Below are positions 13,915 through 64,000 of a stretch of DNA of 64,000 nt, piece after piece. The notes below the pieces were generated by a model. That model worked only from the letters and a program-made list of their open reading frames with translations. It had not been told where the DNA came from and did no database searches. The stretch's first letter is position 1. Every line of letters starts with the position of its first letter. Source of the stretch: a virus; IMG/VR virus record IMGVR_UViG_3300023235_001181. The stretch is one strand, 5' to 3'. The position numbers were made by a program, and so were the translations under genes.

Positions 13915-14448
13915 TCAAGAAATGGGTACCAACAGCGTACTCATGGAGTTGCCCTGGAACGAGATCTTGCTCTCCACCTTGGCAACGTCGGCCAGGGCCT
14001 CGATCACCTTCATCATCTGCGCTTGACCCACGTCGCGTCTACGCATCTCACGACGGCGGAAGCGTACTTCGACCTTCACCCGACTGCCCTCGCTGATGAA
14101 CTGTCGGATCTTGCGGACCTTGGTGTCAAAGTCGTGGGTGTCCGTAGTGGGACGGAACTTGATCTCACGCACGGAGTTGGCAGCAGAGTTCCTCCGCTGC
14201 TCCTTCTTGGCCTTCTGGCTCGCGTACCGCATCTTCCCGAAGTCGACAATCTTGCAGACGGGCGGGGTGGCATCGGGGGACACTTCAACAAGGTCAAGCC
14301 CTGCGTCCTGCGCGCGGTTGTACGCGTCACGGGTCATGAAGATGCCAAGTTGGCGTCCCGTCTCGTCAATGAGACGTACGCGGGTTGCTCGGATTTCTCG
14401 ATTGCGGCGAGGCCCATTATCGGGACTCTTATCACGGCGAGGGGGCAC
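13915..14448 (-). CDS. infC: translation initiation factor IF-3
   Basis: 177 aa; IRATRVRLIDETGRQLGI...VEVSPDATPPVCKIVDFGK...EIKFRPTTDTHDFDTKVRKIRQFISEGSRVKVEVRFRRREM aligns along full length with bacterial IF-3 N- and C-domains; GTG start after GGAGTAG SD. Confidence 0.8.
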   Translation of the reverse strand: MPPRRDKSPDNGPRRNREIRATRVRLIDETGRQLGIFMTRDAYNRAQDAGLDLVEVSPDATPPVCKIVDFGKMRYASQKAKKEQRRNSAANSVREIKFRPTTDTHDFDTKVRKIRQFISEGSRVKVEVRFRRREMRRRDVGQAQMMKVIEALADVAKVESKISFQGNSMSTLLVPIS

Positions 14449-43079: not shown

Positions 43080-44051
43080 TCAATCACCGAAGAAGTCCTT
43101 CGCCCACTCGAACTGGAAGCCCGCCCGTGCCGCAAAGGTCTGGTCGCTCTTCATGTCGCCCACGTAGATGCAGGCGTCCGGGTTGAGCTTGTACTTCTCG
43201 ATGAACACGACGCCCATGCCTGCCATCGGCTTGCGCCAGTAGGAGCTCGGGGGTCCACCACGGTCAGGGGCGAACAGGTACTCGATGTCATGTCCGAGCT
43301 GCCGGTTGGTCTCATCGAAGCAGTCGCGGCAGGTGACGTCGCTGACGTACTTGGGGCTGTCCGAGGCTTGGCTCACACCGCTCTGGTTGCTGATGCCCAG
43401 GATCCGGTAGCCCTTGTCGATGTACTCCTGGATGATGGCGGTACGTCCCTCCAGAGCGCGCACGTCCCCGATCTCCTTGGGGTAGTGGTCACCACTGTTG
43501 GTCAGGCGCAACGTGCCGTCGTAGTCGAGCAGCAGAGCCTTCCCCGTGTACTCGGAGCCGAAGTCGGTCACCACGTCCACTTCTTCGATGCTGTCGAAGC
43601 CCTCGGCCATGGTCGGGTCTTCGAACTGCTTCCAGTACGCAAACTGAGCCATGGGCGGGAACATGTTCGGGTTCTTGCGGTGCTTCTTGTACTCGGCCTT
43701 GCCGAAGAGCACACCGAACTTCTGGATCTGACGCCGGGCCGCAAAGAGCTGAGCCTGCTCACGGGTGGTCTGTAGCCACAGCACGCGGACAGGTAGGTTG
43801 AGCTGCCTTGCGTTCACCATCAGGCCCCGGCGTGCGGCGACGTTCCGGTAGGTGTTGTCAAGCACGAAGCGGCGCTTCCCGCGCTTGTACTGCTCCTGCA
43901 TCACCTTGTAGATCTTGCTGTCGGGACTGTTCAGCTTCCCGCCGATCTCGTCACGGTTGATGCGGGTGTAGCCCTGCTTCACGAGGGATTGGACGTGCGT
44001 GGTCTTCCCGCCGCCCGGAGGTCCCATGACAATGACGATTTCGTGTTCCAT
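43080..44051 (-). CDS. pnk: polynucleotide 5'-kinase/3'-phosphatase (T4 Pnk-like)
   Basis: 323 aa; P-loop GPPGGGKTT kinase N-domain; HAD phosphatase C-domain with LLDYDGTL (DxDGT) and GDMKSD motifs. Confidence 0.75.
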   Translation of the reverse strand: MEHEIVIVMGPPGGGKTTHVQSLVKQGYTRINRDEIGGKLNSPDSKIYKVMQEQYKRGKRRFVLDNTYRNVAARRGLMVNARQLNLPVRVLWLQTTREQAQLFAARRQIQKFGVLFGKAEYKKHRKNPNMFPPMAQFAYWKQFEDPTMAEGFDSIEEVDVVTDFGSEYTGKALLLDYDGTLRLTNSGDHYPKEIGDVRALEGRTAIIQEYIDKGYRILGISNQSGVSQASDSPKYVSDVTCRDCFDETNRQLGHDIEYLFAPDRGGPPSSYWRKPMAGMGVVFIEKYKLNPDACIYVGDMKSDQTFAARAGFQFEWAKDFFGD

Positions 44052-44309: not shown

Positions 44310-44720
44310 ACTCCAATCTCCAGGTATGGGTTCTGAGGATCATTCGTGTTGGTGATGGCGATGATGCCGTCCAAATCTCTGAAAATGGTAGCCATCACTT
44401 CGTCGTAGGTGTTCCGGTTGATGATCTGGTCCCTGTGCTTGAGGCACTGACCCTCCGCGAGGAGGATGTCAGGGGTGTACCGCTCCATGGTGGAGGGCCT
44501 CCTGTCCAAGACGAGGAGCAGCCTCTTGTCCTCGTTGTTCGCCAGTTCGCGCCACCGAAGCAGGTACGCTGACCGGACCTGGTACATGGACAGCAACGAG
44601 GTCATTTCGACGTTGAGGTCTGCCCTTGCAGCCTCGGTAGCTGCAAGGGTTTGCATGGCTCCTTCTGACACCCCCTCTTCCGGAGGGGGGTCAATCTCAA
44701 GTAGGAGGTGAAGCCTATCG
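44306..44720 (-). CDS. hypothetical protein
   Basis: ORF to 44821 overlaps Prs gene; true start likely internal. Confidence 0.4.
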
Positions 44721-45701
44721 AGAGCCACCCCAGCCTCGCGGGAGGTGGTGAAGCACGGAGTCCACCAACACCGGAGCGCATCGCATGATGCGGAAGATGC
44801 CGGAGGTGCCTGGCTTGTCAAGGGTGTTCACCATCTTCACGGCGCGCGGGTGGCTGTCAAAGGAGTACACCGCGTCGAGTACGCCGTCGAACATGGCGTG
44901 CGTGTCGGCGGGGCTCTTGGTGTAGACGCCGTGGCTCAGGATCGCGCTGACGCCAATGGCACCCGCGTCCATGTAGCTCTTCGCTCCACCCACGAGGCTG
45001 CTACCGCTCCGGGTCATGTCGTCCACGAGGATCACGTACTTGCCCTTGACGTCGGCGCTGACGTTGGTCACCTCGGTGGTCCCGCCGTCGATGCGTCGCT
45101 TGCCGATGAAGGCAGGGAGCCAGCCACCCATCTCGGAGGCGATGTACTCCACACGCTTCGCACCACCGGCATCAGCGGAGCCAATCACGGCATCAGCGAC
45201 GCCCTGCTCAGCCACGATCTCGCGGATCGCGTCGAGGATGATCGGCTGTCCACGAGAGTGGATCTGGTGGGCTCGGTCTCCGAAGTAGTGGGGGATGCCC
45301 TCTGCATGGAGATCGAGGAACACGATCCGGTTGCCGTTGTAGGCCTCGGGGATGGCGCTGAGCAGCCGGGCGCGCGTCTTGGCAGTCACCACCTCACGCG
45401 TCTTGGGCTTGGCGCGCTCCATGGTGCTGTACCCGAAGTAGGGGATCACGATGGTCAGAGAGCGAGCTCCGTAGGCCACAATCGCGCAGCAAGCGTCGAA
45501 CATCTCCATCGTGTCGTTGTCGTTGATGGTGCCGCCGAGGTACACCACGTCACGGTCACGCACTGAGGTTTCGATGCGCTGGTACCGCTCCCCGTCAGGG
45601 AAGGTCTTGATCAGCACCTCGCCCCGGTCGAAGCAGGGGTCTACGTCAACAAACGTAGGGGCGAGGTACTCGTAGCTTCGGGTAGCAAAGAGAAGAGGCA
45701 C
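44715..45701 (-). CDS. ribose-phosphate pyrophosphokinase (PRPP synthetase) family protein; could be an ADPR-PP-synthetase-type Prs homolog
   Basis: 328 aa; N-domain GEVLIKTFPDGE...RDVVYLGG, DLHAEGI, PRPP loop VILVDDMTRSGSS. Confidence 0.75.
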   Translation of the reverse strand: MPLLFATRSYEYLAPTFVDVDPCFDRGEVLIKTFPDGERYQRIETSVRDRDVVYLGGTINDNDTMEMFDACCAIVAYGARSLTIVIPYFGYSTMERAKPKTREVVTAKTRARLLSAIPEAYNGNRIVFLDLHAEGIPHYFGDRAHQIHSRGQPIILDAIREIVAEQGVADAVIGSADAGGAKRVEYIASEMGGWLPAFIGKRRIDGGTTEVTNVSADVKGKYVILVDDMTRSGSSLVGGAKSYMDAGAIGVSAILSHGVYTKSPADTHAMFDGVLDAVYSFDSHPRAVKMVNTLDKPGTSGIFRIMRCAPVLVDSVLHHLPRGWGGSR

Positions 45702-45714
45702 GTTGGTTCTCCTT

Positions 45715-46902
45715 TTAGAGGACGCTCTCTACGATACGAACGTAGAGGTCATCCAGCTTGTCCATGTCGGGGCTGTAAGGTAGCACGGGAGTGAGCTCGG
45801 GAAGGGGCTCGAGGCCCTTCTTCACCCGCGCAGTCACACGCTGCTTCTCGGTACCGTAGTACGATGTGTAGATGTCACCGAGAGCGGCGTTCTCGCGATC
45901 AGCCCAGTCCACCAACTCGTCGTAGGTCCAGGCACCCTTGCGGATAGCGAGGAGCTCTTCACGGTCGATCCCGCCGCGCCACACATGCACCTTGCCCGTC
46001 GTCAAGATCTCCCGTCCCATGCGGAGCAGGCGAACGAGGTGGGCACCGTGCTTGGTGTCGTAGCCGGAGGCAGCTTCCAGCGCAGCCCGCTTGGGGTTCC
46101 GCTGACGCTTCCAGGTCTCGAAGCTCTTCCAGTTCTTTTGGGCGTCCTTGTACCGCTTCTCACCCTTGAGGGCCTCGAGCAGTCCTTCGTCGATCCCGAT
46201 GGAGCGTGCGGCAGCAATCCACAGTTCATCGTCGGTGGTCACGCCGATGGTGGCGAGGGTCTCAGCGATGTTGTCCTTGGCGCGGATCTTCTCGCTGTCG
46301 GCCATTTCGCCGAAGTCCCACTTCCACTCGTCAAGCTGCTTGTCGATGGCGGCGAGGAGCACGTTGCGCTGATGCTGCGTCACCACTTCCTCACCGAGGC
46401 CAAACTCCTCGCGGGTCGGCTTGTGGGTCGGAGGGTTGAGCAACCAGGCCCGGTGTCCCTTGATGCGCTTGAGCTGCTGGAAGGCGTAGCCGGTGAAGCG
46501 GTGCTTGGCGGCTCCACTCAGGAAGAGGTCCCGGTGTTCGCGGAGCAACTGCCCGGCCCAGTTGTGCATGAGCAGCTCTTCGTCGCGGCAGAAGAGCACG
46601 TCGAGCATTCCGGGGTTGCAGTCGGCGGTCAGCTTCATGAACTTGCCGAGGCCGTACACGACGCCCTCGAGCTTCTCGCGTTCGGCGGCGTCCATCTGCT
46701 CGGCGTCGAGGTACTTGCGGAAGGGTTCCATCTGCCCAGGCTTGTCGCACTGGTCGAAACGCTTGCGGAAGGTCAAGTGGTACGGACGTGGAGGTAGGCA
46801 GACGCCCTTGAGGTCTACGTCCGAAGTGTCGGTGTGGAGCCCGTAAGCTCGGGAACCAGCCACTCCAACGAGGATCGCAGAGTCATGTAGGTCGAAATCC
46901 AT
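45715..46902 (-). CDS. nucleotidyltransferase (Pol-beta superfamily) with C-terminal extension
   Basis: 395 aa; GSRAYGLHTDTSDVDLKGV; second copy of the family in the window. Confidence 0.6.
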   Translation of the reverse strand: MDFDLHDSAILVGVAGSRAYGLHTDTSDVDLKGVCLPPRPYHLTFRKRFDQCDKPGQMEPFRKYLDAEQMDAAEREKLEGVVYGLGKFMKLTADCNPGMLDVLFCRDEELLMHNWAGQLLREHRDLFLSGAAKHRFTGYAFQQLKRIKGHRAWLLNPPTHKPTREEFGLGEEVVTQHQRNVLLAAIDKQLDEWKWDFGEMADSEKIRAKDNIAETLATIGVTTDDELWIAAARSIGIDEGLLEALKGEKRYKDAQKNWKSFETWKRQRNPKRAALEAASGYDTKHGAHLVRLLRMGREILTTGKVHVWRGGIDREELLAIRKGAWTYDELVDWADRENAALGDIYTSYYGTEKQRVTARVKKGLEPLPELTPVLPYSPDMDKLDDLYVRIVESVL

Positions 46903-48792: not shown

Positions 48793-49170
48793 TCAGATGA
48801 GTCCGGCCTTCACGGTCGCTACGGGAAACTTGTACTTGCCGCCGCGCGGCCCAGTAGCACTCACCGGGTACTTGTAGCGGGTGAGCTTGAAGCCGGTCAC
48901 CGTGTAGGTGGTCGGCCCCGATTTGAACGTCCGGCCCATGAGGTCCTCGGGGAGGCCAAAGCCACGGCACGCGCTCAGGAAGGCTGCGCTAACGGCGGGC
49001 TTCCCATCATCACCGTTCACGGCGATGGTTTCGATGCGGAACTTGGCAGTGAGGCTGTCGAGGCCCAAGCTGCCACCGTCCGAAGTGATCGTCACCCCAT
49101 GCTTGCGAGCAACCTCGGCGCAGGCGGCTTCCATATCTGCGGTGATCATGCGGGCGATTGCTCTGTTCAT
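48793..49170 (-). CDS. hypothetical protein
   Basis: 125 aa; ACGGAGCACCAC-ATG context. Confidence 0.45.
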   Translation of the reverse strand: MNRAIARMITADMEAACAEVARKHGVTITSDGGSLGLDSLTAKFRIETIAVNGDDGKPAVSAAFLSACRGFGLPEDLMGRTFKSGPTTYTVTGFKLTRYKYPVSATGPRGGKYKFPVATVKAGLI

Positions 49171-49239: not shown

Positions 49240-49452
49240 CTAAGCCGAGCCGTACTTGTACGACTTGAACATCTGGTACTCGGTGTCCTCAATGAAGCCA
49301 AGCGCCCCGAGGGCCTTCTTGTCCTCGTCACTCACCGAGTCGTACTCCACGCCCACCTGCATCACGTCGTGTTCACAGTGAGTGGGCCACTTCGTGTCGG
49401 TGTACTTCCCAAAGATGGTGAAGGCAGCGATCAGTTCTTCGCATCCGGTCAT
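49240..49452 (-). CDS. small hypothetical protein
   Basis: 70 aa. Confidence 0.35.
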   Translation of the reverse strand: MTGCEELIAAFTIFGKYTDTKWPTHCEHDVMQVGVEYDSVSDEDKKALGALGFIEDTEYQMFKSYKYGSA

Positions 49453-50270
49453 GGCGAGATCTCCTCAGTCACTCGGTTCACCTCTGCTACGAGCAGGTCA
49501 GTGTCACAGGCGTAGAGGCCTGCGGAGCTGAAGCTGCCCACTTCGAGGATGTGGTAGTTGCCCGCCTTGGTCTGACACATGTCGAGCACCCAAACGTGGT
49601 CAGGCTCGTACTTCTGCTCCAAGCAGTAGTCCACGAACTCCTGGCCACGTCGTAGGGCGTCAGCCGTGGCAAGCTCGCGGGGGTGGTTGTACCCGCGTCG
49701 ATACAGAGAGCCGGTGACAACGCGCCCCTGGGCCACGAAGAAACGCCACTCCACCTCTACGTTGATGGGTCGAGCGACAACCACCATCGTTTCGGGCTTC
49801 ACCACGTCGTCGTAGAAGCCCATCAGCTCGATGTCCCTGTCCCACGTCTCCCTCTTCAACAACTGTCCGCTGAAGAGCTTCCGGTTGCTGTCAGGGCGCA
49901 CGAACAGGCACCCGTCCTCGCCCAACGCGGCGAAGAGCATCTCCTTGTGTGCAGTCAGGAGGCCGAACGGCATGAAGATGTGGTCGCGGTTGAGCAGACG
50001 GTCCCTGATGCGCGGGTAGTAGAAGGAGCACATGAGCTGGTCGGCGTTCTCGTAGACCGTCCATCCTTGCTCCCGCGCCATTTCCACTGCCTGAAGAGAG
50101 CCGTGGAACACCATCGGGTAGACGCCGTTCGTGGCGGCGAGCATCTCGAACCCTCCGTCCATCGGCATGAACTTGGGAGCGTAAACACTCCACCCCAATG
50201 CCTCAGCGGAGGCAGCGAGCTTGCTCTCGTACTCAGGCTCGATGCCCGTTTCGATCACCCAACCGGGCAT
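49449..50270 (-). CDS. hypothetical protein, possibly ATP-grasp-fold
   Basis: 273 aa; alternating beta-like segments (LFVRPDS, VVVARPINVEVEWRFFV, WVLDMCQTKAGNYHILEV) weakly resemble ATP-grasp central/C domains. Confidence 0.3.
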   Translation of the reverse strand: MPGWVIETGIEPEYESKLAASAEALGWSVYAPKFMPMDGGFEMLAATNGVYPMVFHGSLQAVEMAREQGWTVYENADQLMCSFYYPRIRDRLLNRDHIFMPFGLLTAHKEMLFAALGEDGCLFVRPDSNRKLFSGQLLKRETWDRDIELMGFYDDVVKPETMVVVARPINVEVEWRFFVAQGRVVTGSLYRRGYNHPRELATADALRRGQEFVDYCLEQKYEPDHVWVLDMCQTKAGNYHILEVGSFSSAGLYACDTDLLVAEVNRVTEEISP

Positions 50271-50327: not shown

Positions 50328-52541
50328 TCAGCTCTTGAACATGTCGTAGCTCATGTTCTTATCTACATCGCTCAGGAAGTGAGTGATGGCCGTCTCCACG
50401 GAGTCCCACTCAAGCGCTGCACCTTGACGCCCTTCGAGGTTCGCCTGAATGTACTCAGCCGCCTCCTTGAAGGAGCTCGCCTCGATGAGGGCCAGTGCCT
50501 CCCTGAAGGCGCTCACTGTGATGAACTCCAGCCGTCCGGCTTGCATCAGGATGTCGCTGATGCCGATGTGGCGGTACTCCTGACCCCGCTTCTTGGAGTA
50601 CTCGGGGAGCAGGTTCGGGTCGGCGAAGTACCACTCAAAAGAGCCTGGGTTCTCGTACAGCAGCACCTCGTCGGGTCGGGAGGGGTCGTCGAGCTGGTAG
50701 TTCAGCACCCAAGTCATCCAGCACCCGCCGTTCATCCACCGGTCGAAGGCCACGTCCATCACGGGGACGTCAGGGTTGCGCTCGCGGAGCCTCAGGTACG
50801 TCACGGCTGCCAGGAACATCCGCTTGCGCACGGGAGCTACCCAGCGTGCCGTGGGCTTGACACCCTCGTCGTTCTTGTCCCACTCGTAGCCCTCGCTCTC
50901 ACGGGGGGTGACGCCGTAGCTCAGAATCGATTGGAGCACGTTGTAGCTGAGGCGGATCCAGTCCGGGTGGAGCTTGTCGCCCGCTGTGCCGAACCTCATC
51001 GAAGTCCTGAGTCCGGCAGCGATTGTGGGCATACAGAAGCCCGCACTGTCGCAGGTGCTCCAATGGCTCTGCTGGAAGAGGAACTGAGGGATCTCGTACT
51101 CGGGGAGGTCGAACTCGGGTGCTTCGTACCGAGGCTGTCCGGTCTCGTGCCAATCGTCCTCGCGGGAGTTGAGGATGCGGTCCGCCGAGTAGGCAAGGCT
51201 CTGAGCCTTGGCGTCGTCGTCCATGGCATTCCACTTCGCCAGGATCTCCTCGCGGGGCTTGTCGCGGAAGCTGTACCCGTTGAAGAACGCGGCCACAAGC
51301 ACCTTCTCGGGCGGTGCCTCGAGTCCTGCTTCGCGGGTCACATAGTCGGTCAACTCGTCCGGGGCACGCACCCACTCGAAGGTCGCGTACTCGGTGGTGT
51401 CGTCGTCACGGGCGTTGTTGTGAACGAACTTGTAGACGCCTGGCTTCACGTCCACGACGCTCACGGTCCACCCGTCGAGCTCTTCCTTCACACGCCTCGC
51501 TGAATCCTCGCCAAACACGAACGCGCTGCGCCGGATGTACTCGTCGTAGTCCACGATGCTGTACCACCACAGGTCCGTACAGATGGAAGCCACATCCTCG
51601 CCCATGGCCTCTACGGCAGCTTCGTACTCGCCTTCAGCCCACTCCACGTTCTCGTACTTGTACTCGTCACCTTCTTTGCCGAGGTACGTGCTGCTCTTGT
51701 ACTCCTCGGGCACGCCTCCGGAGATGGTGTAGTGCTCTGCGTCCCTGCGGTACACGCTGGGGCAGGAGTTGCCGACGCTTGCGTGGCTCATGCCTACACG
51801 GCTGTAGGCCAGGGCGGTCTCGTGCTGTCCGAGGATCATGTTCACGGAGCTGACGGACTCGCTCATGGGGAACACGTCCCGCAGGTCGTTGGCGACAACG
51901 AGCTTGCCGCTTGGGACGTTGAGTTCCCAGGTGGTCGTGGGCAGTCCCTCGGGGTACTTGCAGGGAGCGCCCACTACCTTCCAGGTGCCGTCGAAGGACA
52001 CCTTGTAGCCTTTGCCGCAGTAGGTGCATTCGCTCGACATGCCGATGCGGATGATCTCAGGCTCGAGGGTCCACTCTCCGGTGTCGATGAAGTGCTGGTA
52101 GGCTACTGCCTGCTCCTTGGTGATCACCCGGAACCGGAAGTCCTCCTTGAGGCCACGGTCCAGCCAGAACTCCTTGCTGTAGGAGGAGATTGGCAGAGCC
52201 GTTCCGGAACCCCAGTGACCATTCCAGTCCTTGCACTCCAGCAGGGATGGCATCTTCTCCATCAGTGCTGCGCTCAGCGTCAAAGCCTCCGCGAAGTCGA
52301 GGAGCGGGCTGTCACCGCGCGCCTCCTTCTCCGCTTCACGCTTGGCTGCTCGAGCGATGCCGTCAGGGCTTTCCTTCTCTTTCTCAAGCCACGAACGTCG
52401 GTCGGTGGCAAGGGCGGGACGCACGAAACGGTCGTGGGGGAAACTCTCCCCATTGACTACAATCATGCCATCGACCACCGCCTCAACGAGCACGTCGCAC
52501 TTGAGGAGTAGGTCGTAGGCGGTTTCACCGGATCTAAGCAA
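50328..52541 (-). CDS. large hypothetical protein (737 aa)
   Basis: long uninterrupted ORF. Confidence 0.55.
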   Translation of the reverse strand: MLRSGETAYDLLLKCDVLVEAVVDGMIVVNGESFPHDRFVRPALATDRRSWLEKEKESPDGIARAAKREAEKEARGDSPLLDFAEALTLSAALMEKMPSLLECKDWNGHWGSGTALPISSYSKEFWLDRGLKEDFRFRVITKEQAVAYQHFIDTGEWTLEPEIIRIGMSSECTYCGKGYKVSFDGTWKVVGAPCKYPEGLPTTTWELNVPSGKLVVANDLRDVFPMSESVSSVNMILGQHETALAYSRVGMSHASVGNSCPSVYRRDAEHYTISGGVPEEYKSSTYLGKEGDEYKYENVEWAEGEYEAAVEAMGEDVASICTDLWWYSIVDYDEYIRRSAFVFGEDSARRVKEELDGWTVSVVDVKPGVYKFVHNNARDDDTTEYATFEWVRAPDELTDYVTREAGLEAPPEKVLVAAFFNGYSFRDKPREEILAKWNAMDDDAKAQSLAYSADRILNSREDDWHETGQPRYEAPEFDLPEYEIPQFLFQQSHWSTCDSAGFCMPTIAAGLRTSMRFGTAGDKLHPDWIRLSYNVLQSILSYGVTPRESEGYEWDKNDEGVKPTARWVAPVRKRMFLAAVTYLRLRERNPDVPVMDVAFDRWMNGGCWMTWVLNYQLDDPSRPDEVLLYENPGSFEWYFADPNLLPEYSKKRGQEYRHIGISDILMQAGRLEFITVSAFREALALIEASSFKEAAEYIQANLEGRQGAALEWDSVETAITHFLSDVDKNMSYDMFKS

Positions 52542-52544: not shown

Positions 52545-54038
52545 TCACCTCATTGTCGGGAACAGAATCACGTCCCGAATTGATTGTGTGTCTGTCAACA
52601 GCATCACGAGCCGGTCGATGCCAATCCCCTCACCGGAGGTGGGAGGCATACCGAAGCTCAACGCGTCGATGTAGTCCTGGTCGAAGTACATGGCTTCATC
52701 GTCCCCGCGTGCCTTGGCAGCAGCCTGGGCCTGGAAACGAGCAGCCTGCTCAACGGGGTCGTTCAGCTCTTGGAAGCCGTTGGCGATTTCCATACCGGCG
52801 ATGTAGAGCTCGAAGCGGTCTGCTACCTCTGGGTCATCAGCAGATGCTCGAGAGAGTGGGCTGATGTCCAAGGGGAATCCGGTCACGAAGGTCGGCTGGA
52901 TCAGCTTGTCCTCAACGTACTCGTCGAAGTAGAGCTGGAACCACCGCCCGATGGTCCGGGGGAGCTTGGTAGCGTCCGGGTGGTCCTGTACCCACCTCGA
53001 GCGCATCTCGGGCATGGAGAAGGGGTCGTTGATGCCCGCGTGCTCCATGATCAGGTCGGCCATGCTCACGCGCCTGAAGGTGGTCAGGTCAAGCTCGTGC
53101 CCGTCGTAGGTGCAGACGTCCATCGGAAGGAACTCGCCAACCCGGCAGGCTTCCTCGTAGATGACGCGGTTGTTGGCACCACGGATGATGGCTTCGGTGG
53201 TGTCCATCAGGTCAGCCGGTGTGGCGTGGGCCTGATAGAACTCCAGCATGGTGAACTCGGGGTTGTGCGTCCCGTCCACTCCCTCGTTCCGGAAGTTGCG
53301 GTTCAGCTCGAACACTCGCTCGTAGCCACCCACGATGAGCCTCTTGAGGTAGAGCTCAGGGGCGATGCGTAGGTAGAGGTCCTTGTCGAGAGCGTTGTGG
53401 TGCGTCACGAATGGTCGTGCGTTCGCACCGCCTGGGAGCGTCTGCATCATCGGCGTCTCCACCTCCATGAACCGATGGTCTTCAAAGTACCTCCGGATGT
53501 AGGATACGATGGTGCTGCGCGCACGGAACCGGTCGCGAGTGTCTTGGCTCACGATGAGGTCGAGGTACCGCTGACGGCGCTGCTGCTCCACGTCGGTGAA
53601 CCCCGCGTGCTTGTCCGGCAGGCTCTTGATGCACTTGGAGTAGAGCGCAAGGCTGTCCACCTTGAGGCTCAGGTCACCGCGTCGGGTACGGATGAGCTGC
53701 GCTTCTGCGTACACCCAGTCGCCGATGTCCAACTTCTTCCACACGTCGGCGTACATGACGGGGCCGATGCCCGCACGGCGCACGAACAACTGCATCCGGC
53801 TTTCGCCATCCTCGATGAAGGCGAAGCCAATCTTGCCCATCTCGTTCTTCTGGACGATGCGTCCGGCCACACGGTAGACGGTGGTCTGCGCCTCCAACTC
53901 CTCCGCGCTCAGATCAGCACCGATGCGCAAGATCTCGAGCAGCCGGTGGCTGAGGTCCTTGGAGACGGGATAGGGATCTACGCCTTCAGCGCGTAGTGCG
54001 TCCAACTTTTCCAGCCGTGCTGGTTCAAATTCGCTCAC
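52545..54038 (-). CDS. lysS: lysyl-tRNA synthetase, class II
   Basis: 497 aa; motif 2 FRNEG..HNPEFTMLEFY, motif 3 GEGIGIDRLVMLLTDTQSIRDVILFPTMR, N-terminal OB anticodon-binding domain. Confidence 0.85.
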   Translation of the reverse strand: MSEFEPARLEKLDALRAEGVDPYPVSKDLSHRLLEILRIGADLSAEELEAQTTVYRVAGRIVQKNEMGKIGFAFIEDGESRMQLFVRRAGIGPVMYADVWKKLDIGDWVYAEAQLIRTRRGDLSLKVDSLALYSKCIKSLPDKHAGFTDVEQQRRQRYLDLIVSQDTRDRFRARSTIVSYIRRYFEDHRFMEVETPMMQTLPGGANARPFVTHHNALDKDLYLRIAPELYLKRLIVGGYERVFELNRNFRNEGVDGTHNPEFTMLEFYQAHATPADLMDTTEAIIRGANNRVIYEEACRVGEFLPMDVCTYDGHELDLTTFRRVSMADLIMEHAGINDPFSMPEMRSRWVQDHPDATKLPRTIGRWFQLYFDEYVEDKLIQPTFVTGFPLDISPLSRASADDPEVADRFELYIAGMEIANGFQELNDPVEQAARFQAQAAAKARGDDEAMYFDQDYIDALSFGMPPTSGEGIGIDRLVMLLTDTQSIRDVILFPTMR

Positions 54039-54164
54039 GGAGCCCTCCGTAGGTCTGCATTACCCCTGGGACGGGGACAGAGTGTTATTCGTGCGAACCC
54101 TATCTCAGTCGAGCAGTAGACTGATCACAGTAGTCTCTTCGCCATTCGAGTGTGATGTGTGGCA

Positions 54165-55736
54165 TTAGGCTGCCGCAGCCACCGCTTCCGCGCGGGCTCG
54201 GGTACACGTCTCGATCAAGCTCAGGGTGATGCCGTCCACGGCGGGTCGGTGTTCGAAGCCGTCACGTCGCGCCGAGTCACCGGGTCCGTACACACGCCAG
54301 CCCTTCGGGAGGTTGCCGTACTGACACACCATCGTAGCGGGTCCGTGTGAGGGGTGAGCAGCGTTCTCGCGCACGGCGAGTACCGGGATGCCGGGGAGGC
54401 TCTGCTTCCCGCTCCAACCCTCTTCCAGCTCATCGCCGAACTTCATGGTCGGTCCGTACTTGGACGTCCAGGCGAGCTTGTAAACCATGCTCACCAAGCC
54501 ACGTCGGTAGCCGGTGGGCTCCGGGCGGTCGATGAAGTAGCCGCCCGCGCCAAACAGCGTCACCTCTTCGGGGTAGTCAACCTCGATGCGGAGCGCCTCG
54601 TACCGTGCAACGTCCTTGTCGTCGATGCCGTCTTCAAATACCCACGGGCGGGGTCGGATGCCGCGTGCCTTGATCTCGCTCACGATGTAGCGGAACTGCT
54701 CCTCAAGGGAGCCGCTGTCGGGTCGCATCCCGTCGTTCCGGTCCGGAAACTCTTCCATGAGCTTCAGGGCGGTCGGGATGCCCACCTTCATCGTGTCGTT
54801 GGTGTCGAGCAGCATGATCACGAGGGGCATTGCGGCGATGTGTGCGCGGAAGGCGCGTTCGTCGTTGCCACCGTGGCGCATGATGCCCTCATGGCCCAGC
54901 GTGCCAACTGCCTTGATGTCCAGCACGTAGGCACCGTAGGCGTTGGAGGTCAGCGTGAAGCCGAGGTCCTTCAGAGCCTTGAGCGCGATGAGGTGCTGCT
55001 CCATGCAGGTTGCGGCGCGGAGGCCAACCTCGAAGATGCGGTTCGGGCTCACGCCGGAGGCCAGCATCTTGATGCCCTGCAACTGCACCGCGTTGTAGTA
55101 GCTGAGCTCGTCCACGGTGATGCCGTTTTCGATGTCCCGCAGCTCCTGTCGGAAGTCGGCATCGCCGAAGTCCCTGCCCTTGTGGGCACCGAGGATCGCC
55201 TCCATGGTGAGCTCCTTCTGGCGCTCACAGGTCACGGTGCGGATGGTCTCGAGGAAGGCGGGCATCGTGTCGCCCTCGCGGGCCTTGATGTAGGCGGTCG
55301 CTACCTGCATCTGGTAGCTGAAGCGTCCCGAAACCAACGGCTCGAGCCAGCTTGCGATGGCCTGAGGAGCTCGCACGGTAGCCACGGGCTCACGGGGAGC
55401 AGCGTACTCGCCAAAGGGTGTCGCGTAGAGCACCTCAAGGCTGGAGCCGTCCACGGAGTCCCACAGCATCTTCTCGGTCACGTTGAAGCCGAAGTGCTGC
55501 AGTAGCGCGCACTCTTCCTTCACGGTCGCTGAGGTGGGGTTGGGGATCATCTCGCGGATCGCCGTCTCGGGATCCACAGGCATGAACATGAGCCCGCCGC
55601 GTCGGAAGCTCAGATAGAACACTTCCTTCTCTTCGGGGCGTCCGCCAGCCATCATGGGCCACTTGTAGCCGTCCGATCCGAGGGTGCTTTCGCGCCAGGA
55701 TCGCTTGCCTGCAAGTAGTTGTCGTAGAATGCTCAT
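54165..55736 (-). CDS. nadV: nicotinamide phosphoribosyltransferase family protein (NadV/Nampt-like; alternatively a Namat-type transferase)
   Basis: 523 aa; GSDGYKWPM (cf. TDSYKVTH), GIRPDSGSLEE (cf. RPDSGNP), FGAGGYF (cf. FGSGGGL). Confidence 0.75.
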   Translation of the reverse strand: MSILRQLLAGKRSWRESTLGSDGYKWPMMAGGRPEEKEVFYLSFRRGGLMFMPVDPETAIREMIPNPTSATVKEECALLQHFGFNVTEKMLWDSVDGSSLEVLYATPFGEYAAPREPVATVRAPQAIASWLEPLVSGRFSYQMQVATAYIKAREGDTMPAFLETIRTVTCERQKELTMEAILGAHKGRDFGDADFRQELRDIENGITVDELSYYNAVQLQGIKMLASGVSPNRIFEVGLRAATCMEQHLIALKALKDLGFTLTSNAYGAYVLDIKAVGTLGHEGIMRHGGNDERAFRAHIAAMPLVIMLLDTNDTMKVGIPTALKLMEEFPDRNDGMRPDSGSLEEQFRYIVSEIKARGIRPRPWVFEDGIDDKDVARYEALRIEVDYPEEVTLFGAGGYFIDRPEPTGYRRGLVSMVYKLAWTSKYGPTMKFGDELEEGWSGKQSLPGIPVLAVRENAAHPSHGPATMVCQYGNLPKGWRVYGPGDSARRDGFEHRPAVDGITLSLIETCTRARAEAVAAAA

Positions 55737-55764
55737 AATTCCTCGGGTGTCCAGTTACTCCATC

Positions 55765-55794
55765 AACGACGGATACCCCGAGGAAGTTAGAGAG
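55765..55794 (-). promoter_or_regulatory. bipartite promoter-like motif variant (CTCTCTAACT-N16-CGTTGA) upstream of nadV-like gene
   Basis: minus-sense gttCTCTCTAACTtcctcggggtatccgtCGTTGAtggag...gaggaattATG. Confidence 0.4.
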
Positions 55795-55812
55795 AACTTG
55801 TAGGTTTCGAAC

Positions 55813-56733
55813 TCAGCGGCGGGTACCAGTACGCACCATCAGGTTGAGGGTCTTCCCGCTCACTTTGAAGGTGGCTGTCTGTCCCCATGCGAACTCCAGC
55901 CGGTCAGATTCGATGCCGTCCCCGAAGATGACTCCACCTTCCTGCATACGCGACGTCACCTTGAGAGGAGCATCCGGCTCCACATACCCTTGCTGGATTG
56001 AAACGCCTGAGAAGGGGCTGTCCCAAGCCTCTCTCACCTGAAAGATCAGCACTCCCTCTTCGGGATCTGGGAAGGGCAGAGGGTTCCGGCGCTGTGATGC
56101 GACGGAGCTTGCCCAACCCGTACAACCCGTACCGGAGCTGATGATCATACCAGAGGAGCTCTGGTACTCGGTGTGCTGCTCGTAGGCGATGTCGTACTTG
56201 GCGCTCTGATGGGAGTGGTGTCCGCAGAACAGCTCGTTGAGGGCGATGATCTTCCGTCCCTCCTCTTGCGTTTCGTCGTCCTTGATCTCCACCTCCACCA
56301 TTGAGCGGCGCTGAAGCTTGGCGGTGTTGTTCTTGAGGTAGCCGTAGAGCAAGGGGATCTCCCGCTCACGCCACACCATCATCTTCGCCTTGTAGGAGGT
56401 GTCGGGGTTGATCCCGGCGACAGTCTGCCCGTCCAGGTACTTGGCTACGTTCGGGACCAAGCCGTCCTGCCCCACAGCAACGATGATGTCACCGGGCTGA
56501 AAGACAAACCTGTCCAGATCGCTCCGGAGGCAGCTCGTCTTTCGCCAGGTGTGTGGTACATCGCGGAGGGCACGGGCAGCAACTTTCAAGGTGACGGCGT
56601 GCATCCGTTCCACCTTGTCCATCGACTGCCCCATCAGCTCAAGCCTGAACCTCGCCATCTGAACGGTCCCGTGCTCTACGAGCAGAGATTCGTACTCGGT
56701 GGTTCTGCGAACCACTACTACTCGAGGTTCCAC
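55813..56733 (-). CDS. NAD kinase-like protein
   Basis: 306 aa; GDIIVAVGQDGLV (GGDG-type), IALNELF (NE/D motif), SGMIISSGTGCTGWASS (cf. [20 protein letters not shown]). Confidence 0.55.
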   Translation of the reverse strand: MEPRVVVVRRTTEYESLLVEHGTVQMARFRLELMGQSMDKVERMHAVTLKVAARALRDVPHTWRKTSCLRSDLDRFVFQPGDIIVAVGQDGLVPNVAKYLDGQTVAGINPDTSYKAKMMVWREREIPLLYGYLKNNTAKLQRRSMVEVEIKDDETQEEGRKIIALNELFCGHHSHQSAKYDIAYEQHTEYQSSSGMIISSGTGCTGWASSVASQRRNPLPFPDPEEGVLIFQVREAWDSPFSGVSIQQGYVEPDAPLKVTSRMQEGGVIFGDGIESDRLEFAWGQTATFKVSGKTLNLMVRTGTRR

Positions 56734-57861: not shown

Positions 57862-57958
57862 CTTGTGTCTCCGTGATTGGGCTTGTCGCCCTTGGGTTCA
57901 TACCCTCCTACTGTTCACGGTTGAAGGCGGGATAGGTTCCCGCCGACGCACATACTTT

Positions 57959-58818: not shown

Positions 58819-58858
58819 TTGGGTCCGTTCCTTGGGTCGTTGTCCGTAGTGCTCCCCC

Positions 58859-58887: not shown

Positions 58888-58893
58888 TTTTCT

Positions 58894-60402: not shown

Positions 60403-60404
60403 GA

Positions 60405-61541: not shown

Positions 61542-61848
61542 ATTTCGGGTCCTGCCACCAGTCCTGGCTTTCCAAATCAAGCATCTCGTAGAGGCGGTCT
61601 GGAAGTTCCGACAGCCCTTCCTCCCTGAACCACTCCCCACGCCACCGAATGCGGTAGCTGCGAAGTCGCCCATGGATGTAGAACTCGGTGGGTCCCTCTT
61701 TGGGGACGAGCAGGATGACCTTCAGCGTGTAGGGGTTCCCGGTCTGAAGCTCGTTGAGGCGGCGCTCAATGTCCTTGGTGCGTCCGATCTTCACCACCCC
61801 GGTCACCGCCGCTTGGATGATGTACAGGTCCTCCCCAAACGATTTCAC
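61534..61848 (-). CDS. T5orf172/GIY-YIG-like domain protein
   Basis: 104 aa; LYIIQAAVTGVVKIGRTKDIERRLNELQTGNP matches T5orf172 (MUG113) signature. Confidence 0.5.
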   Translation of the reverse strand: MKSFGEDLYIIQAAVTGVVKIGRTKDIERRLNELQTGNPYTLKVILLVPKEGPTEFYIHGRLRSYRIRWRGEWFREEGLSELPDRLYEMLDLESQDWWQDPKYL

Positions 61849-62801
61849 AGGAAGAACGGGCTCTCCTCTACTACCGGCTGAGCAGGCAGGAGGAAAGAGA
61901 CGTAGCGGGGTGAGGGGTCGAACGGATTGAACTTGCGCTTGTAGGTCGCGTTGAAGCCATGCTTGCCACCTTCACCGATGGCTACTCCATCAGCTACGTG
62001 GGTCACACCCTGTCGCGCCATGTCGGCAAAGCAGTCGTGTTGAGCCCATGCACTCAGGTTCGGTATGCCTCTGTCACATGCCATGCCTGTCGTGTGGCCC
62101 CAGCACGTTTCTGTCATGGGTTGGTTGAGGTGGATCACGAGCGGCTCTCCGTCAATGCGGTAGAGCCGGTTGATGCCGTCCTCGTAGTGCCGGTCGAGAA
62201 TGTACTCGTATTTCCGGTAGTTGATGTTCATGCCGCCGCGCTCCTTGGACTCCTTGACCCAACGCTTCATCACCGCGCGGGCCTCCTCCAGGTTTCCGGA
62301 GTCGATGGGCTCAGCCGTGTAGCCGGTGGTGGTCCGCTTGAAGGCGTTGATGTCAGCTCGGAGGCGACGCCACTTCTTTCCAGAGAGTGTGTCGATCCCT
62401 GCAATGTCGTAGGTGTACTCGCCGTACTCACTGAATTTCCCAGGAGTGAGCTTGACGCCCTCTGCCATGAAGGCCGCAGCGATATCAGCGGCCCAGGAGG
62501 CTGGGACGTTCTCAATCTTGAGGTTCTTGTCCGTGCTTCCCTTGTACGCCTGCCACCACGCAACCAACTCGGGAATGACTGCGTCCTTGTCACCGTAGGC
62601 TCGGTAGACACGGTAGTATTTCCCGTACTTCACACTGAAGAGGAGAAGCGTGTCCTCGCTGACGACCTTGTTGCCCTTGAACACTCCGTGGTTGATGAAC
62701 CCGTAAGTGTAGGGGAGGCAGTCGGTCATTGTAGCTACACCGTCCATACGTGAACGGATGAAGGGGATGTCTGCCGTGGTCAGCGGGGTAGTTTCACTCA
62801 T
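61845..62801 (-). CDS. hypothetical protein (318 aa), paralog of 63519-63923
   Basis: shared C-terminal module ETCWGHTTGMACDRG...QGVTHVADGVAIGEGGKHGFNATYKRKFNPF vs DTCWAHTLGIALGTE...RGVTHIADGQRVANFKNKDKFRPI. Confidence 0.5.
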   Translation of the reverse strand: MSETTPLTTADIPFIRSRMDGVATMTDCLPYTYGFINHGVFKGNKVVSEDTLLLFSVKYGKYYRVYRAYGDKDAVIPELVAWWQAYKGSTDKNLKIENVPASWAADIAAAFMAEGVKLTPGKFSEYGEYTYDIAGIDTLSGKKWRRLRADINAFKRTTTGYTAEPIDSGNLEEARAVMKRWVKESKERGGMNINYRKYEYILDRHYEDGINRLYRIDGEPLVIHLNQPMTETCWGHTTGMACDRGIPNLSAWAQHDCFADMARQGVTHVADGVAIGEGGKHGFNATYKRKFNPFDPSPRYVSFLLPAQPVVEESPFFL

Positions 62802-63537
62802 CGAAGAGGCTCATGTATTCGTGGTCATCACCACCCAAGATGTCCGGGTGGATCAGGCGCTCGGGAACGTCGGGAGCTTCTGCGCCGCCTGAGGTCTCCC
62901 GGTGAAGGTAGAAGGGCCGGTTGTACTTGAGAACCGTCGTAGGGAGGAAGTCCCTCGGGCCTGTGTAGTAGAAACCGTCCACGCCGGTAGATGCAGCGAT
63001 GGCTGCTTCCATGCGCGGGTCAAGAGTGGCAACCGGAATGCCCTGGCTCTTGAACTTGAGCGTGATGACTGCGTAGCCCTTCTCGGCCTTGGCGTTCAAG
63101 AGGTCGAACAGCATCCCAACGTCTTCGGGTCCGGTGGTGGTGAACAGCACGCCGCAAGAGAGGACGAAGTCCCACGTCGGGGCCTTGTTCAGCTCTTCCC
63201 AGTAGTTCCCGATGCGGAAGTCGTACTCCGGCACTCGGGTTCGGGCGTCCAGCACGTTGGCAGGGACGATGTCGAACCCTTGGTACTTCAGCTCGGGCCT
63301 CTGGTCGCGTAGCATCTCAGCCAGCGTGCCCGTGCCGCACCCACACTCGAGAATGGAGGTGGCGTTGGCTGGGATCAGGTCGATGAGGCCCTGCCAATGA
63401 GCAACCATGTCCTCGGGAGAGTACTTGTACCACTTGAAGCGGGTGGTGTCGTCAGGGTCCTCGTACTTCCCGGCTGACCGAGTGTAGGAGTCCCGCCAAC
63501 GGAGGATCGTTTCATCTGCTACTGGAATGGAAGACAT
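62794..63537 (-). CDS. class I SAM-dependent methyltransferase
   Basis: 247 aa; motif I ILECGCGTGTL, motif post-I QGFDIVP. Confidence 0.7.
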   Translation of the reverse strand: MSSIPVADETILRWRDSYTRSAGKYEDPDDTTRFKWYKYSPEDMVAHWQGLIDLIPANATSILECGCGTGTLAEMLRDQRPELKYQGFDIVPANVLDARTRVPEYDFRIGNYWEELNKAPTWDFVLSCGVLFTTTGPEDVGMLFDLLNAKAEKGYAVITLKFKSQGIPVATLDPRMEAAIAASTGVDGFYYTGPRDFLPTTVLKYNRPFYLHRETSGGAEAPDVPERLIHPDILGGDDHEYMSLFDE

Positions 63538-63923
63538 TCATCATCCTCATACTTGCCGTCAATGGCCAGCCTGACACCGGACACGGCACCCTCGATAGGG
63601 CGGAATTTGTCCTTGTTCTTGAAGTTGGCGACACGCTGTCCATCTGCGATGTGCGTGACGCCGCGTTGCTGAAGAAGGCAGAACGCCTCCCAGCTTGACC
63701 ACTCCCACAGGCCTCGGGGCCTGAACAGCGTGCCGTCTTCCTGCTCGGTGCCCAAAGCAATCCCAAGAGTGTGAGCCCAGCACGTGTCGGTGATCTTGTG
63801 CATGATCTGAAGGGCTACGGGCTCTCCCGCCACCTTGTAGAGCAGATGCATACAATCGTCGGTCCTGAAGTTGTCGAAGGCGTAGGTGTACTGCTTGAAG
63901 TTGAGGTTGAAGACGTTCCTCAC
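63519..63923 (-). CDS. hypothetical protein, shorter paralog of 61845-62801
   Basis: 134 aa; conserved TCWxHT..G and GVTHxADG motifs. Confidence 0.45.
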   Translation of the reverse strand: MRNVFNLNFKQYTYAFDNFRTDDCMHLLYKVAGEPVALQIMHKITDTCWAHTLGIALGTEQEDGTLFRPRGLWEWSSWEAFCLLQQRGVTHIADGQRVANFKNKDKFRPIEGAVSGVRLAIDGKYEDDECLPFQ

Positions 63924-64000
63924 CTTCCTTGCCTGACGTGCCCACTCCTTGATGACGTACCATGCCTCCGTGTGCGTGACGTCCTCTACAACCTGGATCA

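Follow-up and report, generated by a model that had tools for sequence, protein, structure and literature searches.

A bacterial-type lysyl-tRNA synthetase gene apparently inserted into an NAD-salvage and RNA-repair block of a putative huge phage

Why a virus should carry a single aminoacyl-tRNA synthetase (aaRS) is the question raised by lysS, a gene found in a 64,000-nt stretch of the IMG/VR virus record IMGVR_UViG_3300023235_001181 (the whole of this stretch is termed the window). The answer that we favour, and judge slightly more probable than improbable, is that lysS encodes an intact, bacterial-type lysyl-tRNA synthetase (LysRS), and is a horizontally acquired accessory gene of a huge phage that keeps Lys-tRNA(Lys) charged for phage translation. 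As such, lysS is a well-documented addition to the catalogue of huge-phage translation genes, of a kind already known.

The gene occupies 52545..54038 on the minus strand (the coding strand was not given in the preliminary description). It is an unbroken ORF with a GTG start at 54038 and a TGA stop, coding for a class IIb LysRS of 497 aa. Direct reading of the sequence places a Shine-Dalgarno motif, GGAGGG, at 54043..54048 (minus strand), 4 nt 5' of the GTG. GC content by codon position (GC1 0.63, GC2 0.39, GC3 0.81) has the pattern of a real gene, and the plus-strand ORFs that overlap lysS are high-GC shadows.

The protein had been described as a complete class II LysRS with three motifs and an N-terminal OB domain, and domain models and structure-based alignment agree on this. 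Pfam recognises the tRNA_anti-codon OB fold (PF01336, residues 56-130, 40.1 bits against a cut-off of 27) and tRNA-synt_2 (PF00152, residues 150-496, 291 bits), while among NCBIfam models PRK00484 scores 614.5 bits (cut-off 468) and TIGR00499 lysS_bact 568.4 bits (cut-off 427.6). LysRS can be aligned over its full length to the solved structures 3A74 and 4EX5 (E about 1e-137), and motifs 1, 2 and 3 (MEVETPMM, FRNEG..HNPEFTMLEFY and GEGIGIDRLVMLL) are intact and match both. The conserved positions of the OB domain (G-R, F, Q, T..G(E/D)LS) are also present. When near-invariant columns were defined as those at least 95% conserved among 119 aligned homologues, 132 of 138 were unchanged, and all six substitutions are conservative (G113A, E122D, I201L, E391D, D430E, A468S). 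Neither a frameshift or internal stop (by ORF reading and alignment) nor an inactive motif 2 or 3 (by alignment) was found. The phage LysRS thus belongs, on sequence criteria, to the LysS/LysU type, and it is predicted to be catalytically intact and apparently active.

Two related identities were considered and rejected. EpmA/PoxA/GenX, the lysyl ligase of EF-P, is a LysRS paralogue that consists of the catalytic core without the anticodon-binding domain; here the OB domain is present, and the score with TIGR00462, 250.8 bits, does not reach the cut-off of 286.9. The match to LysX is confined to the LysRS part of that model (620-1099) and, at 499.8 bits, falls short of the cut-off of 742.

The surroundings of lysS appear to be viral rather than chromosomal, and its carrier to be an uncultivated huge (jumbo) phage. 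Small ORFans are densely packed around lysS, and about two thirds of the neighbouring genes have no Pfam match. Those that can be recognised are typical of phages: T5orf172, a T4-type dNMP kinase, Pnk, RlaP, R2K, IF3 and an endolysin-like gene. Bacterial core genes on the flanks would have told against the phage-like character proposed earlier, and the flanks consist largely of ORFans and phage-typical genes. Of the contigs read, the longest spans 113.6 kb; proteins of the window turn up again on contigs of up to 0.2-1 Mb, with one 0.2-1 Mb contig carrying a window protein, and syntenic relatives of the region are found on contigs of 129 kb and 478 kb. The genome is present in the ENA samples ERZ27316044 (contig k141_124603), ERZ27315390 and ERZ27315625 and in the SRA samples SRR7528202, SRR7528804 and SRR7528855, and one of these gives a contig of 0.2-1 Mb. 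When 17 kb around lysS was compared by megablast with 50,697 phage records no match was returned, and there is therefore no close described relative.

That the region is instead bacterial chromosome, megaplasmid or mis-assembly, with lysS as a cell's own gene, is very improbable. This reading could draw on the presence of cellular-type genes (ClpP, IF3, LysRS) and on the lack of any gene for capsid, portal or terminase across the 82 kb read. However, real chromosomal lysS loci look quite different, with a Pfam match on nearly every gene (prfB, lolCD, bamA, lpxD), whereas most genes here are ORFans. Furthermore, the same gene arrangement was assembled independently in several samples, rRNA genes (Rfam) and tRNA genes (ARAGORN, Rfam) are absent from the window, and orf737 and RlaP tie the region to cultured or curated jumbo phages.

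The first of these tying genes, orf737 (50328..52541, minus strand), directly follows lysS and encodes a conserved huge-phage protein with 246 homologues of about 700 aa. Many of these homologues are on contigs of 370-660 kb, and the jumbo phages XacN1 and D479 each carry one. No Pfam domain was found in the 246 homologues, the AF2 model (pLDDT 75) had no structural match, and a search of viral_contigs for orf737 found nothing. RlaP, an RNA-repair associated nucleotidyltransferase (45715..46902, minus strand; PF10127, phrog_388), is 46% identical to its counterpart in the huge phage LR745208 and 58% identical to that in the relative L028.

The remaining recognisable neighbours include genes for NAD salvage, nucleotides and RNA repair, and all the genes that follow are on the minus strand unless only their positions are given. 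Upstream of lysS lies a NAPRTase/Nampt-like gene (54165..55736, called as 54165-55655, 496 aa; phrog_448), which matches the NCBIfam NAPRTase models below cut-off, is 53-58% identical to orthologues in the relatives L023 and L028, and is a candidate Namat-type NAD+ reconstitution enzyme. A Prs-like ribose-phosphate diphosphokinase (44715..45701; TIGR01251 146.9 bits, cut-off 113; phrog_619), with orthologues 55-63% identical in relatives, is a candidate for the Adps protein of NARP1. Pnk (43080..44051; AAA_33 and PNK3P, phrog_505, HAD-IIIA above cut-off) is a bifunctional polynucleotide kinase/3'-phosphatase. Also present are an R2K-clade ATP-grasp protein (49449..50270; PF18299/PF14243, phrog_7313 at E=2e-40), a predicted peptide or amino-acid ligase; a PlsC-type lipid acyltransferase (42206-42892); and Nudix genes. 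Besides lysS, the window contains a second translation gene, a homologue of initiation factor IF3 (13915..14337; TIGR00168 154 bits, equivalog cut-off 60; phrog_9787).

Comparison with relatives indicates how lysS came to be in this block. In L028/L029 the order is NAPRT-like gene (58% identical), genes for proteins of 87 aa and 80 aa, orf737 (37%), NadE, RlaP (58%), Prs (55%) and Pnk (59%), and lysS is absent; neither is there a lysS in L023, which has the NAPRT-like gene, NadE and Prs. Since syntenic relatives do not have lysS in the conserved block, it is a lineage-specific insertion of a single gene between the NAPRT-like gene and orf737, within an NAD-salvage/RNA-repair block. Because these close relatives manage without it, lysS is dispensable for the clade.

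The source of the gene was a bacterium, as judged from the resemblance of its product to LysRS enzymes of Myxococcota and Alphaproteobacteria. The best matches (P0002 and P0005, 59-61% identity) come from Myxococcota-type bacteria, where the gene is an ordinary chromosomal lysS in a prfB-lysS-lolCD-bamA-skp-lpx neighbourhood. Their contigs, 470-490 kb in length and labelled as Myxococcota MAGs, were considered as mis-binned huge phages, but both proved to be genuine chromosomal loci. Among 5.8e9 protein clusters, no relative exceeded 61% identity. The phage LysRS is thus related to, but distinct from, the bacterial (host-lineage) enzymes. It shares with bacterial LysS/LysU (TIGR00499; 3A74, 1BBU, 1LYL) the N-terminal OB domain and a class II core with motifs 1-3, and is 46-47% identical to the solved enzymes; unlike theirs, its gene lies among ORFans, outside the prfB-lysS-lolCD context, and in the tree the protein forms a long isolated branch, yet one on which the near-invariant residues were largely kept. 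The source lineage gives a hint of the host, which might be Myxococcota-like or a related Gram-negative.

The gene is already adapted to phage codon usage, and its product has retained every catalytic and anticodon-binding residue. GC3 of lysS is 0.81; window genes have 0.76 +/- 0.06 and lysS genes of bacteria 0.94-0.95, and the correlation of RSCU between lysS and the window is 0.95. With a located insertion, a named bacterial source and adaptation to the new genome, this locus is well suited to experiments on the benefit that a phage draws from a lone aaRS.

The junctions of the insertion bear on expression. The upstream junction is a spacer of 126 nt between the NAPRT-like gene and lysS (54039..54164, minus strand) with no recognisable RNA element: Rfam has no match to a T-box, riboswitch or other element upstream of lysS, folding of the spacer indicates no structured leader (z-score 0.6), and a promoter/terminator scan of it gave no match and did no better than on shuffled sequence. 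Downstream, the TTG start of orf737 is 3 nt past the lysS stop, and the two genes are therefore probably co-transcribed.

For lysS expression, the substrate tRNA and the physiological benefit we infer the following. The gene is most likely expressed together with its neighbours, and its product would aminoacylate tRNA-Lys, either that of the host or a phage tRNA encoded elsewhere in the genome. The pool of Lys-tRNA(Lys) would thereby stay charged during infection, when the host enzyme may have ceased to be produced, be in short supply or be attacked, and LysRS together with phage IF3 would sustain phage protein synthesis. As for demand, the lysine content of the window ORFs is 4.1%, against 2.9% in two Myxococcota-type loci, a small sample. 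As had been noted, no tRNA-Lys gene is visible in the window (no tRNA gene of any kind by ARAGORN or Rfam), and none was found in about 82 kb. In a distant cultured relative, XacN1, two phage tRNA-Lys genes lie 2 kb from the orf737 homologue. The 82 kb showed a single aaRS, and there is therefore no broad translation module.

Genomes of huge phages can encode up to 15 aaRS, for which a role in supporting or redirecting translation has been proposed (Al-Shayeb et al. 2020, PMC7162821). The present case resembles those in that a divergent relative of the bacterial aaRS is found, together with another translation gene (here IF3), on what is probably a very large phage genome. It differs in that the 82 kb accessible showed a lone aaRS and no tRNA, and in that synteny here pins lysS down as a single-gene insertion. 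The earlier remark that aaRS are very unusual in phages is valid for cultured and small phages, there being no LysRS family in PHROGs, but not for huge phages (PMC7162821), and at least 9 viral contigs in IMG/VR carry a LysRS.

The LysRS proteins of other viral contigs are 30-51% identical to that described here and are not orthologous. The nine IMG/VR loci have no other gene in common with the window, no DUF2156-cluster gene within 10 kb and no Myxococcota-type lysS neighbours; they represent independent acquisitions and are uninformative on this lineage. In GenBank phages, tblastn with LysRS gave matches at about 46% in records labelled as phages of Listeria, Staphylococcus, Salmonella, Enterococcus and similar genera. 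Nearly all of these look like host-contig contamination, and LR756504 (636 kb, 37%) is the only match that looks genuinely viral. A 2026 jumbo-phage review and a myxophage preprint yielded nothing on aaRS beyond references.

Counter-defence-type functions (NAD reconstitution, RNA repair) are over-represented in the island around lysS, and lysS could have a more specific role than general translation. In one such role, the phage LysRS would take over from a host LysRS that a toxin has inactivated, charge a nuclease-resistant phage tRNA-Lys, or shield the anticodon from PrrC or PARIS. Anti-phage nucleases repeatedly target tRNA-Lys (PrrC, PARIS AriB), and phages counter them with enzymes of repair or with variant tRNAs (PMC10264068; also PMC11464382 and PMC12409363), and lysS lies within an island of Pnk, RlaP and NAD-reconstitution-type genes; the tRNA-Lys genes near orf737 in XacN1 would fit as well. 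The preliminary description suggested that LysRS acts in concert with Pnk against PrrC-type nucleases, which gains no support here. The order of Pnk, RlaP and Prs is kept in a relative that has no lysS, and Pnk and RlaP are therefore no co-inherited unit with it. A search for tRNA genes and an RNA ligase, as had been proposed, found neither in the 82 kb (for the ligase, no Pfam domain among the called genes), and a cleaved anticodon loop is beyond mending by a synthetase. The bifunctional Pnk and RlaP, 6-10 kb from lysS, do recall the repair of PrrC-cleaved tRNA-Lys by T4 Pnk and Rnl1, but that pathway includes an RNA ligase and has no part for LysRS. To our knowledge there is no published case of an aaRS as an anti-defence protein, and we regard counter-defence as an unlikely main role. 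A signalling role is far less probable still. Class II LysRS enzymes, such as E. coli LysU, produce Ap4A (diadenosine tetraphosphate), and the phage LysRS, placed among NAD-salvage and Nudix genes, might mainly be an Ap4A synthase tied to them. However, the anticodon-binding OB domain, which is not needed for Ap4A synthesis, is wholly kept, no sequence feature distinguishes such an enzyme, and the NAD genes are conserved in relatives that do not have lysS.

The remaining alternative concerns an operon 8-10 kb upstream of lysS on the same strand, and to it we give a small probability, a little below that for counter-defence. Here the Lys-tRNA(Lys) made by LysRS would serve as donor for one or both of two soluble DUF2156 proteins, which would aminoacylate a lipid, a sugar or sugar-nucleotide, or a small molecule, as in a split LysX-like or VlmL/VlmA-like system. 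Both genes exceed the PF09924 cut-off of 27.5 bits: DUF2156_B (61845..62801, minus strand; 40.2 bits), a tandem-GNAT protein of the aa-tRNA-dependent transferase superfamily, and DUF2156_A (63519..64000, minus strand; 322 aa; 37.6 bits in L016, 9051-10019), which is cut by the window end and runs to about 64487. The operon also has a PLP enzyme, a methyltransferase and an RmlA-like nucleotidyltransferase, and the PlsC-type acyltransferase mentioned above could be taken as a further point in favour. An aaRS dedicated to a DUF2156 enzyme has precedents in LysX of Mycobacterium (LysRS-MprF) and ErdS of fungi (AspRS-DUF2156) (PMC9437257). As in those, LysRS and DUF2156-fold genes are found here on one replicon, but they are neither fused nor adjacent, some 10 unrelated genes (ClpP, Band 7 and NAD genes among them) lying between them, and the DUF2156 proteins lack a flippase or transmembrane domain and most resemble the 2HQY type. 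In this phage DUF2156 is duplicated and lysS is present, while the stretch of L023 that was fetched has a single DUF2156 gene and lacks lysS. Nevertheless, L022 and L023 keep the module of PALP, DUF2156 and methyltransferase, and the flanks retrieved for them (for L022 only a 2-kb contig) contain no lysS; DUF2156 genes are absent within 10 kb of all nine viral LysRS loci from IMG/VR, and by its scores LysRS is of the housekeeping type and not LysX. Of the earlier suggestion of Lys-tRNA-dependent modification, what stands is the proximity of the two DUF2156 genes; as relatives have their module with no lysS in the flanks retrieved, the link is tentative. Were the link true, the phage would possess a tRNA-dependent, non-ribosomal route of aminoacylation, encoded by the virus together with a synthetase of its own.

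Irrespective of the charging of Lys-tRNA(Lys) for translation that we favour for lysS, the conserved DUF2156 operon is a more novel lead than lysS itself. A search of viral_contigs for the phage DUF2156 subfamily found nothing, and in the literature searched there was nothing on a phage operon of DUF2156, PLP enzyme and methyltransferase. A word-indexed homology search with DUF2156_B returned the query alone, and exhaustive HMMER found only 21 relatives among 1.84e9 representative proteins. Its AF2 model has a pLDDT of 88.6, and the top Foldseek matches of this model are almost all aa-tRNA-dependent transferases: 2HQY, L-PGS (4V36), A-PGS (4V35), MprF (7F47/7DUW), FemX and Sba18/Sbb17. TM scores are 0.6-0.79 to 2HQY, L-PGS, MprF and FemX, and 0.71-0.79 to 2HQY, which the DUF2156 profile also matches at 2e-8; this nearest solved relative is uncharacterised. 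Between the two DUF2156 genes is a SAM-dependent methyltransferase (62794..63537, minus strand; Methyltransf_25/12) with orthologues 46-51% identical in L022 and L023, and PALP and RmlA-like genes precede DUF2156_A, outside the window.

The lysyl-tRNA synthetase gene lysS is an uninterrupted open reading frame of 497 codons on the minus strand (52545-54038). It begins with GTG at 54038, ends with TGA at 52547-52545 and is preceded, at a distance of 4 nt, by a Shine-Dalgarno sequence, GGAGGG (54048-54043). Its GC content by codon position (0.63, 0.39 and 0.81) is that of the other window genes, and the long plus-strand ORFs lying over it are the usual shadows of 60% GC sequence. At residues 56-130 Pfam places an OB-fold anticodon-binding domain (PF01336), followed at residues 150-496 by the class II D/K/N core (PF00152, E = 1e-86). 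Two curated NCBIfam lysine-tRNA ligase models, PRK00484 (614.5 bits, cut-off 468) and TIGR00499 (568.4 bits, cut-off 427.6), match well above threshold. The identities LysX, EpmA/GenX, AspRS and AsnRS were rejected, as each NCBIfam model scored below its own cut-off. Over its whole length the protein can be aligned to the solved bacterial LysRS structures 3A74, 4EX5, 1BBU and 1LYL (E ~1e-130 to 1e-137), and this alignment shows class II motifs 1 (MEVETPMM), 2 (FRNEG...HNPEFTMLEFY) and 3 (GEGIGIDRLVMLL) to be present. When it is aligned with 119 homologues, the window enzyme is identical at 132 of the 138 columns whose conservation reaches 95% or more, and the remaining six hold conservative replacements only (G113A, E122D, I201L, E391D, D430E, A468S). 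The complete class II enzyme claimed in the preliminary description is thus borne out by reading frame, domain models, structures and conserved columns, and neither a frameshift nor a decayed motif was found. The absence of a visible tRNA-Lys gene was confirmed as well (ARAGORN, 0 tRNA in the window), and Rfam detected no RNA families there.

Six metagenomic contigs, assembled from several samples, carry exactly this LysRS protein. On the longest contig examined, ENA ERZ27316044 k141_124603 (113.6 kb), window coordinate w lies at position 9310 + w, and look-ups from other window genes covered contig positions 715-82847 (~82 kb). One window protein was also found on a larger contig (0.2-1 Mb). 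Genes in the region are tightly spaced and nearly all share a strand; roughly two in three called genes lack a Pfam match, and the recognisable ones are of large-phage type. These include translation initiation factor IF3 (13915-14337, minus; TIGR00168, 154 bits, equivalog cut-off 60), dCMP deaminase, RNase T, a T4-type dNMP kinase, T5orf172, the polynucleotide kinase Pnk, the nucleotidyltransferase RlaP, an R2K ATP-grasp, ClpP, Band 7, topoisomerase IA, a large NAD-salvage gene set and, 5 kb left of the window, an endolysin-like gene. A small protein at 25539-25976 (minus) contains a stretch that weakly resembles L7/L12 (27.6 bits, short of the cut-off). The RNA-repair enzyme RlaP shares 46% identity with its counterpart in LR745208, a curated huge phage of 485 kb. 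Homologues of orf737 (50328-52541, minus), the protein encoded next to lysS, occur in two cultured jumbo phages, XacN1 and Vibrio D479; that of XacN1 lies within a tRNA island after a Band 7 gene. No capsid, portal or terminase genes were found in the ~82 kb. As a control, the chromosomal neighbourhoods of the two best placeable bacterial LysRS matches were examined. These read relA or fusA ... phoH-ybeY-prfB-lysS-lolC-lolD-bamA-skp-lpxD, with a Pfam match for nearly every gene. Because these textbook lysS loci differ from the window, where host core genes were not found on the flanks, the earlier assignment to a phage-like region stands. We regard a phage origin of this DNA as nearly certain, and a non-phage origin as extremely improbable.

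The best database matches to the enzyme (59-61% identity) come from metagenome-assembled genomes of Myxococcota and Alphaproteobacteria. It is equidistant (58-61%) from a broad bacterial set, whose members are 70-89% identical to one another, and a neighbour-joining tree puts it alone on a long branch; nothing closer was found among 5.8 billion clusters. Codon usage and GC3 of lysS match the window (RSCU r = 0.95 against the rest of the window; GC3 0.81 versus 0.76 +/- 0.06) and not bacterial lysS genes (GC3 0.94-0.95). Therefore, either the gene was not transferred recently or its donor is unsampled.

Gene order in relatives pinpoints the site of insertion. One relative, on two contigs of 129 kb and 71 kb (L028/L029, GC 40%, the latter from groundwater), carries an NAPRT-like gene (58% identity), ORFs of 87 and 80 aa, an orf737 homologue (37%), NAD synthase, an ORF of 175 aa, RlaP (58%), the ribose-phosphate diphosphokinase-like gene Prs (55%), an ORF of 134 aa and the polynucleotide kinase/3'-phosphatase Pnk (59%). 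In the window the order is NAPRT-like, lysS, orf737, R2K ATP-grasp, small ORFs, RlaP, Prs, two small ORFs and Pnk. A second relative, a 478-kb scaffold (L023, GC 56%), has DUF2156, PALP, methyltransferase, T5orf172, NrtR-like, isochorismatase, NAPRT-like, NAD synthase and Prs genes. Since lysS is absent from the compared block in both relatives, it is a lineage-specific, single-gene insertion between the NAPRT-like gene and orf737. The horizontally acquired gene thus sits in a conserved accessory block of an uncultivated, probably huge phage. The orf737 start lies 3 nt past the lysS stop and its ribosome-binding site is within the lysS 3' end, so the two genes are likely to be co-transcribed.

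The suggestion that such an enzyme is very unusual in phages holds in part. PHROGs v4 has no LysRS family, and nearly all LysRS matches among 50,697 GenBank phage records look like contaminating host contigs, apart from a copy (37% identity) in one 636-kb huge phage. For example, many records named as phages of Listeria, Staphylococcus, Salmonella or Enterococcus (OR846589, OR848248, OR851006, OR845007 and others) contain LysRS, GenX and AspRS genes on unannotated contigs of ~1.4 kb to 386 kb that look like host-genome contamination; such records would inflate any count of phage synthetases. Against rarity, at least nine IMG/VR viral contigs of up to 448 kb encode LysRS (30-51% identity). LysRS on viral contigs is therefore already known, and the window adds another. 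None of the nine shares any other gene with the window, which points to repeated, independent captures. In jumbo phages the synthetase complement is not conserved, and IF3, R2K ATP-grasp and RlaP are carried sporadically (Iyer et al., PMC7824862); the window has homologues of all three.

The region's more original features are its NAD-reconstitution/RNA-repair island and an operon of DUF2156 genes. The NAD module (39051-39752, 44715-45701, 54165-56733 and 59677-61064, all minus) includes the Prs-like kinase (candidate Adps), an NAPRT/Nampt-like gene (candidate Namat), NAD-kinase-like and NrtR-like Nudix-wHTH genes, two isochorismatase/nicotinamidase-like genes and further Nudix genes. It is similar to the phage NAD+ reconstitution counter-defence NARP1. 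The NAPRT-like, NAD synthase and Prs genes are adjacent in L023 and close together in the 40% GC relative L028; in the window the module is split by the lysS-containing block. A bifunctional Pnk (kinase plus HAD phosphatase, 43080-44051, minus) and RlaP (45715-46902, minus) form a conserved RNA-repair pair, one on either side of Prs. No RNA ligase was detectable in the ~82 kb, so a ligase would have to come from the host or from another part of the phage genome.

The second feature is an operon of overlapping genes 8-10 kb upstream of lysS and on the same strand (61534-64000 and on past the window end; 7091-12004 of contig stretch L016). It encodes an RmlA-like nucleotidyltransferase, orf109, PALP (a PLP enzyme resembling ACC deaminase/D-Cys desulfhydrase), DUF2156_A, a SAM methyltransferase, DUF2156_B and T5orf172. 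Both DUF2156 proteins (soluble, ~320 aa each) score above the Pfam threshold of PF09924, which is the catalytic domain in phosphatidylglycerol lysyltransferase, an enzyme that depends on Lys-tRNA. The family is tiny and divergent (21 matches among 1.84 billion representative proteins). A confident structural model (pLDDT 88.6) finds its best matches in 2HQY, L-PGS, A-PGS, MprF, FemX and Sba18/Sbb17, the last being aminoacyl-tRNA-dependent peptide synthases; the predicted fold is that of an aminoacyl-tRNA transferase. The operon may represent a viral tRNA-dependent modification pathway. The same phage encodes a lipid-modifying enzyme, a PlsC-type acyl-ACP/phospholipid acyltransferase (PF01553; 42206-42892, minus).

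As to function, LysRS is intact, has been under purifying selection through a long independent history, has adapted to phage codon usage and is accompanied by a bona fide IF3. On balance we lean towards an active enzyme that would keep tRNA-Lys charged for phage translation; expression, tRNA substrate and benefit to the phage are what we infer. Lysine makes up 4.1% of window ORFs versus 2.9% in the two GC-rich bacterial loci with the closest LysRS, which weakly supports this role. The Lys-tRNA-dependent modification proposed earlier has gained candidate partners in the DUF2156 proteins, through their position, strand and modelled resemblance to aminoacyl-tRNA transferases. Synthetases fused to DUF2156 domains (LysX, ErdS) are precedents for a dedicated aminoacyl-tRNA supply (PMC9437257). 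However, lysS and the operon lie some ten unrelated genes apart, and LysRS resembles a housekeeping enzyme. Moreover, relatives L022 and L023 retain PALP (72% identity), the methyltransferase and one DUF2156 gene, and the flanks fetched for them show no lysS. We therefore consider the link rather improbable.

The proposal that LysRS acts with Pnk against PrrC-type anticodon nucleases gained no support. Pnk is real, but a synthetase cannot mend a cleaved anticodon loop, Pnk and RlaP are kept in a relative without lysS, and neither an RNA ligase domain nor tRNA-Lys was found in the ~82 kb. In a looser form of counter-defence, LysRS might replace a poisoned host LysRS or charge a nuclease-resistant phage tRNA-Lys. 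Among the preferred targets of PrrC and PARIS is tRNA-Lys, and lysS lies in an island of counter-defence-type functions; this version, which overlaps the translational explanation, seems unlikely. Ap4A signalling by LysRS is very improbable.

Two genes downstream of lysS lies the R2K-clade ATP-grasp (49449-50270, minus; phrog_7313, E = 2e-40), a predicted amino-acid/peptide ligase acting on proteins, near a small HicB/Y4mA_C-like protein (48793-49170, minus). The stretch 56743-59583 (minus), which is flanked by NAD genes, encodes a Band 7/SPFH protein, DUF3228 and ClpP, the last being near-canonical (239.7 bits, below the cut-off of 249). At 5440-6987 (minus), a 515-aa protein joins a CoaB-like phosphopantothenate-cysteine ligase domain (DFP) to a class II aldolase/adducin-like domain; such a fusion is unusual in phages.
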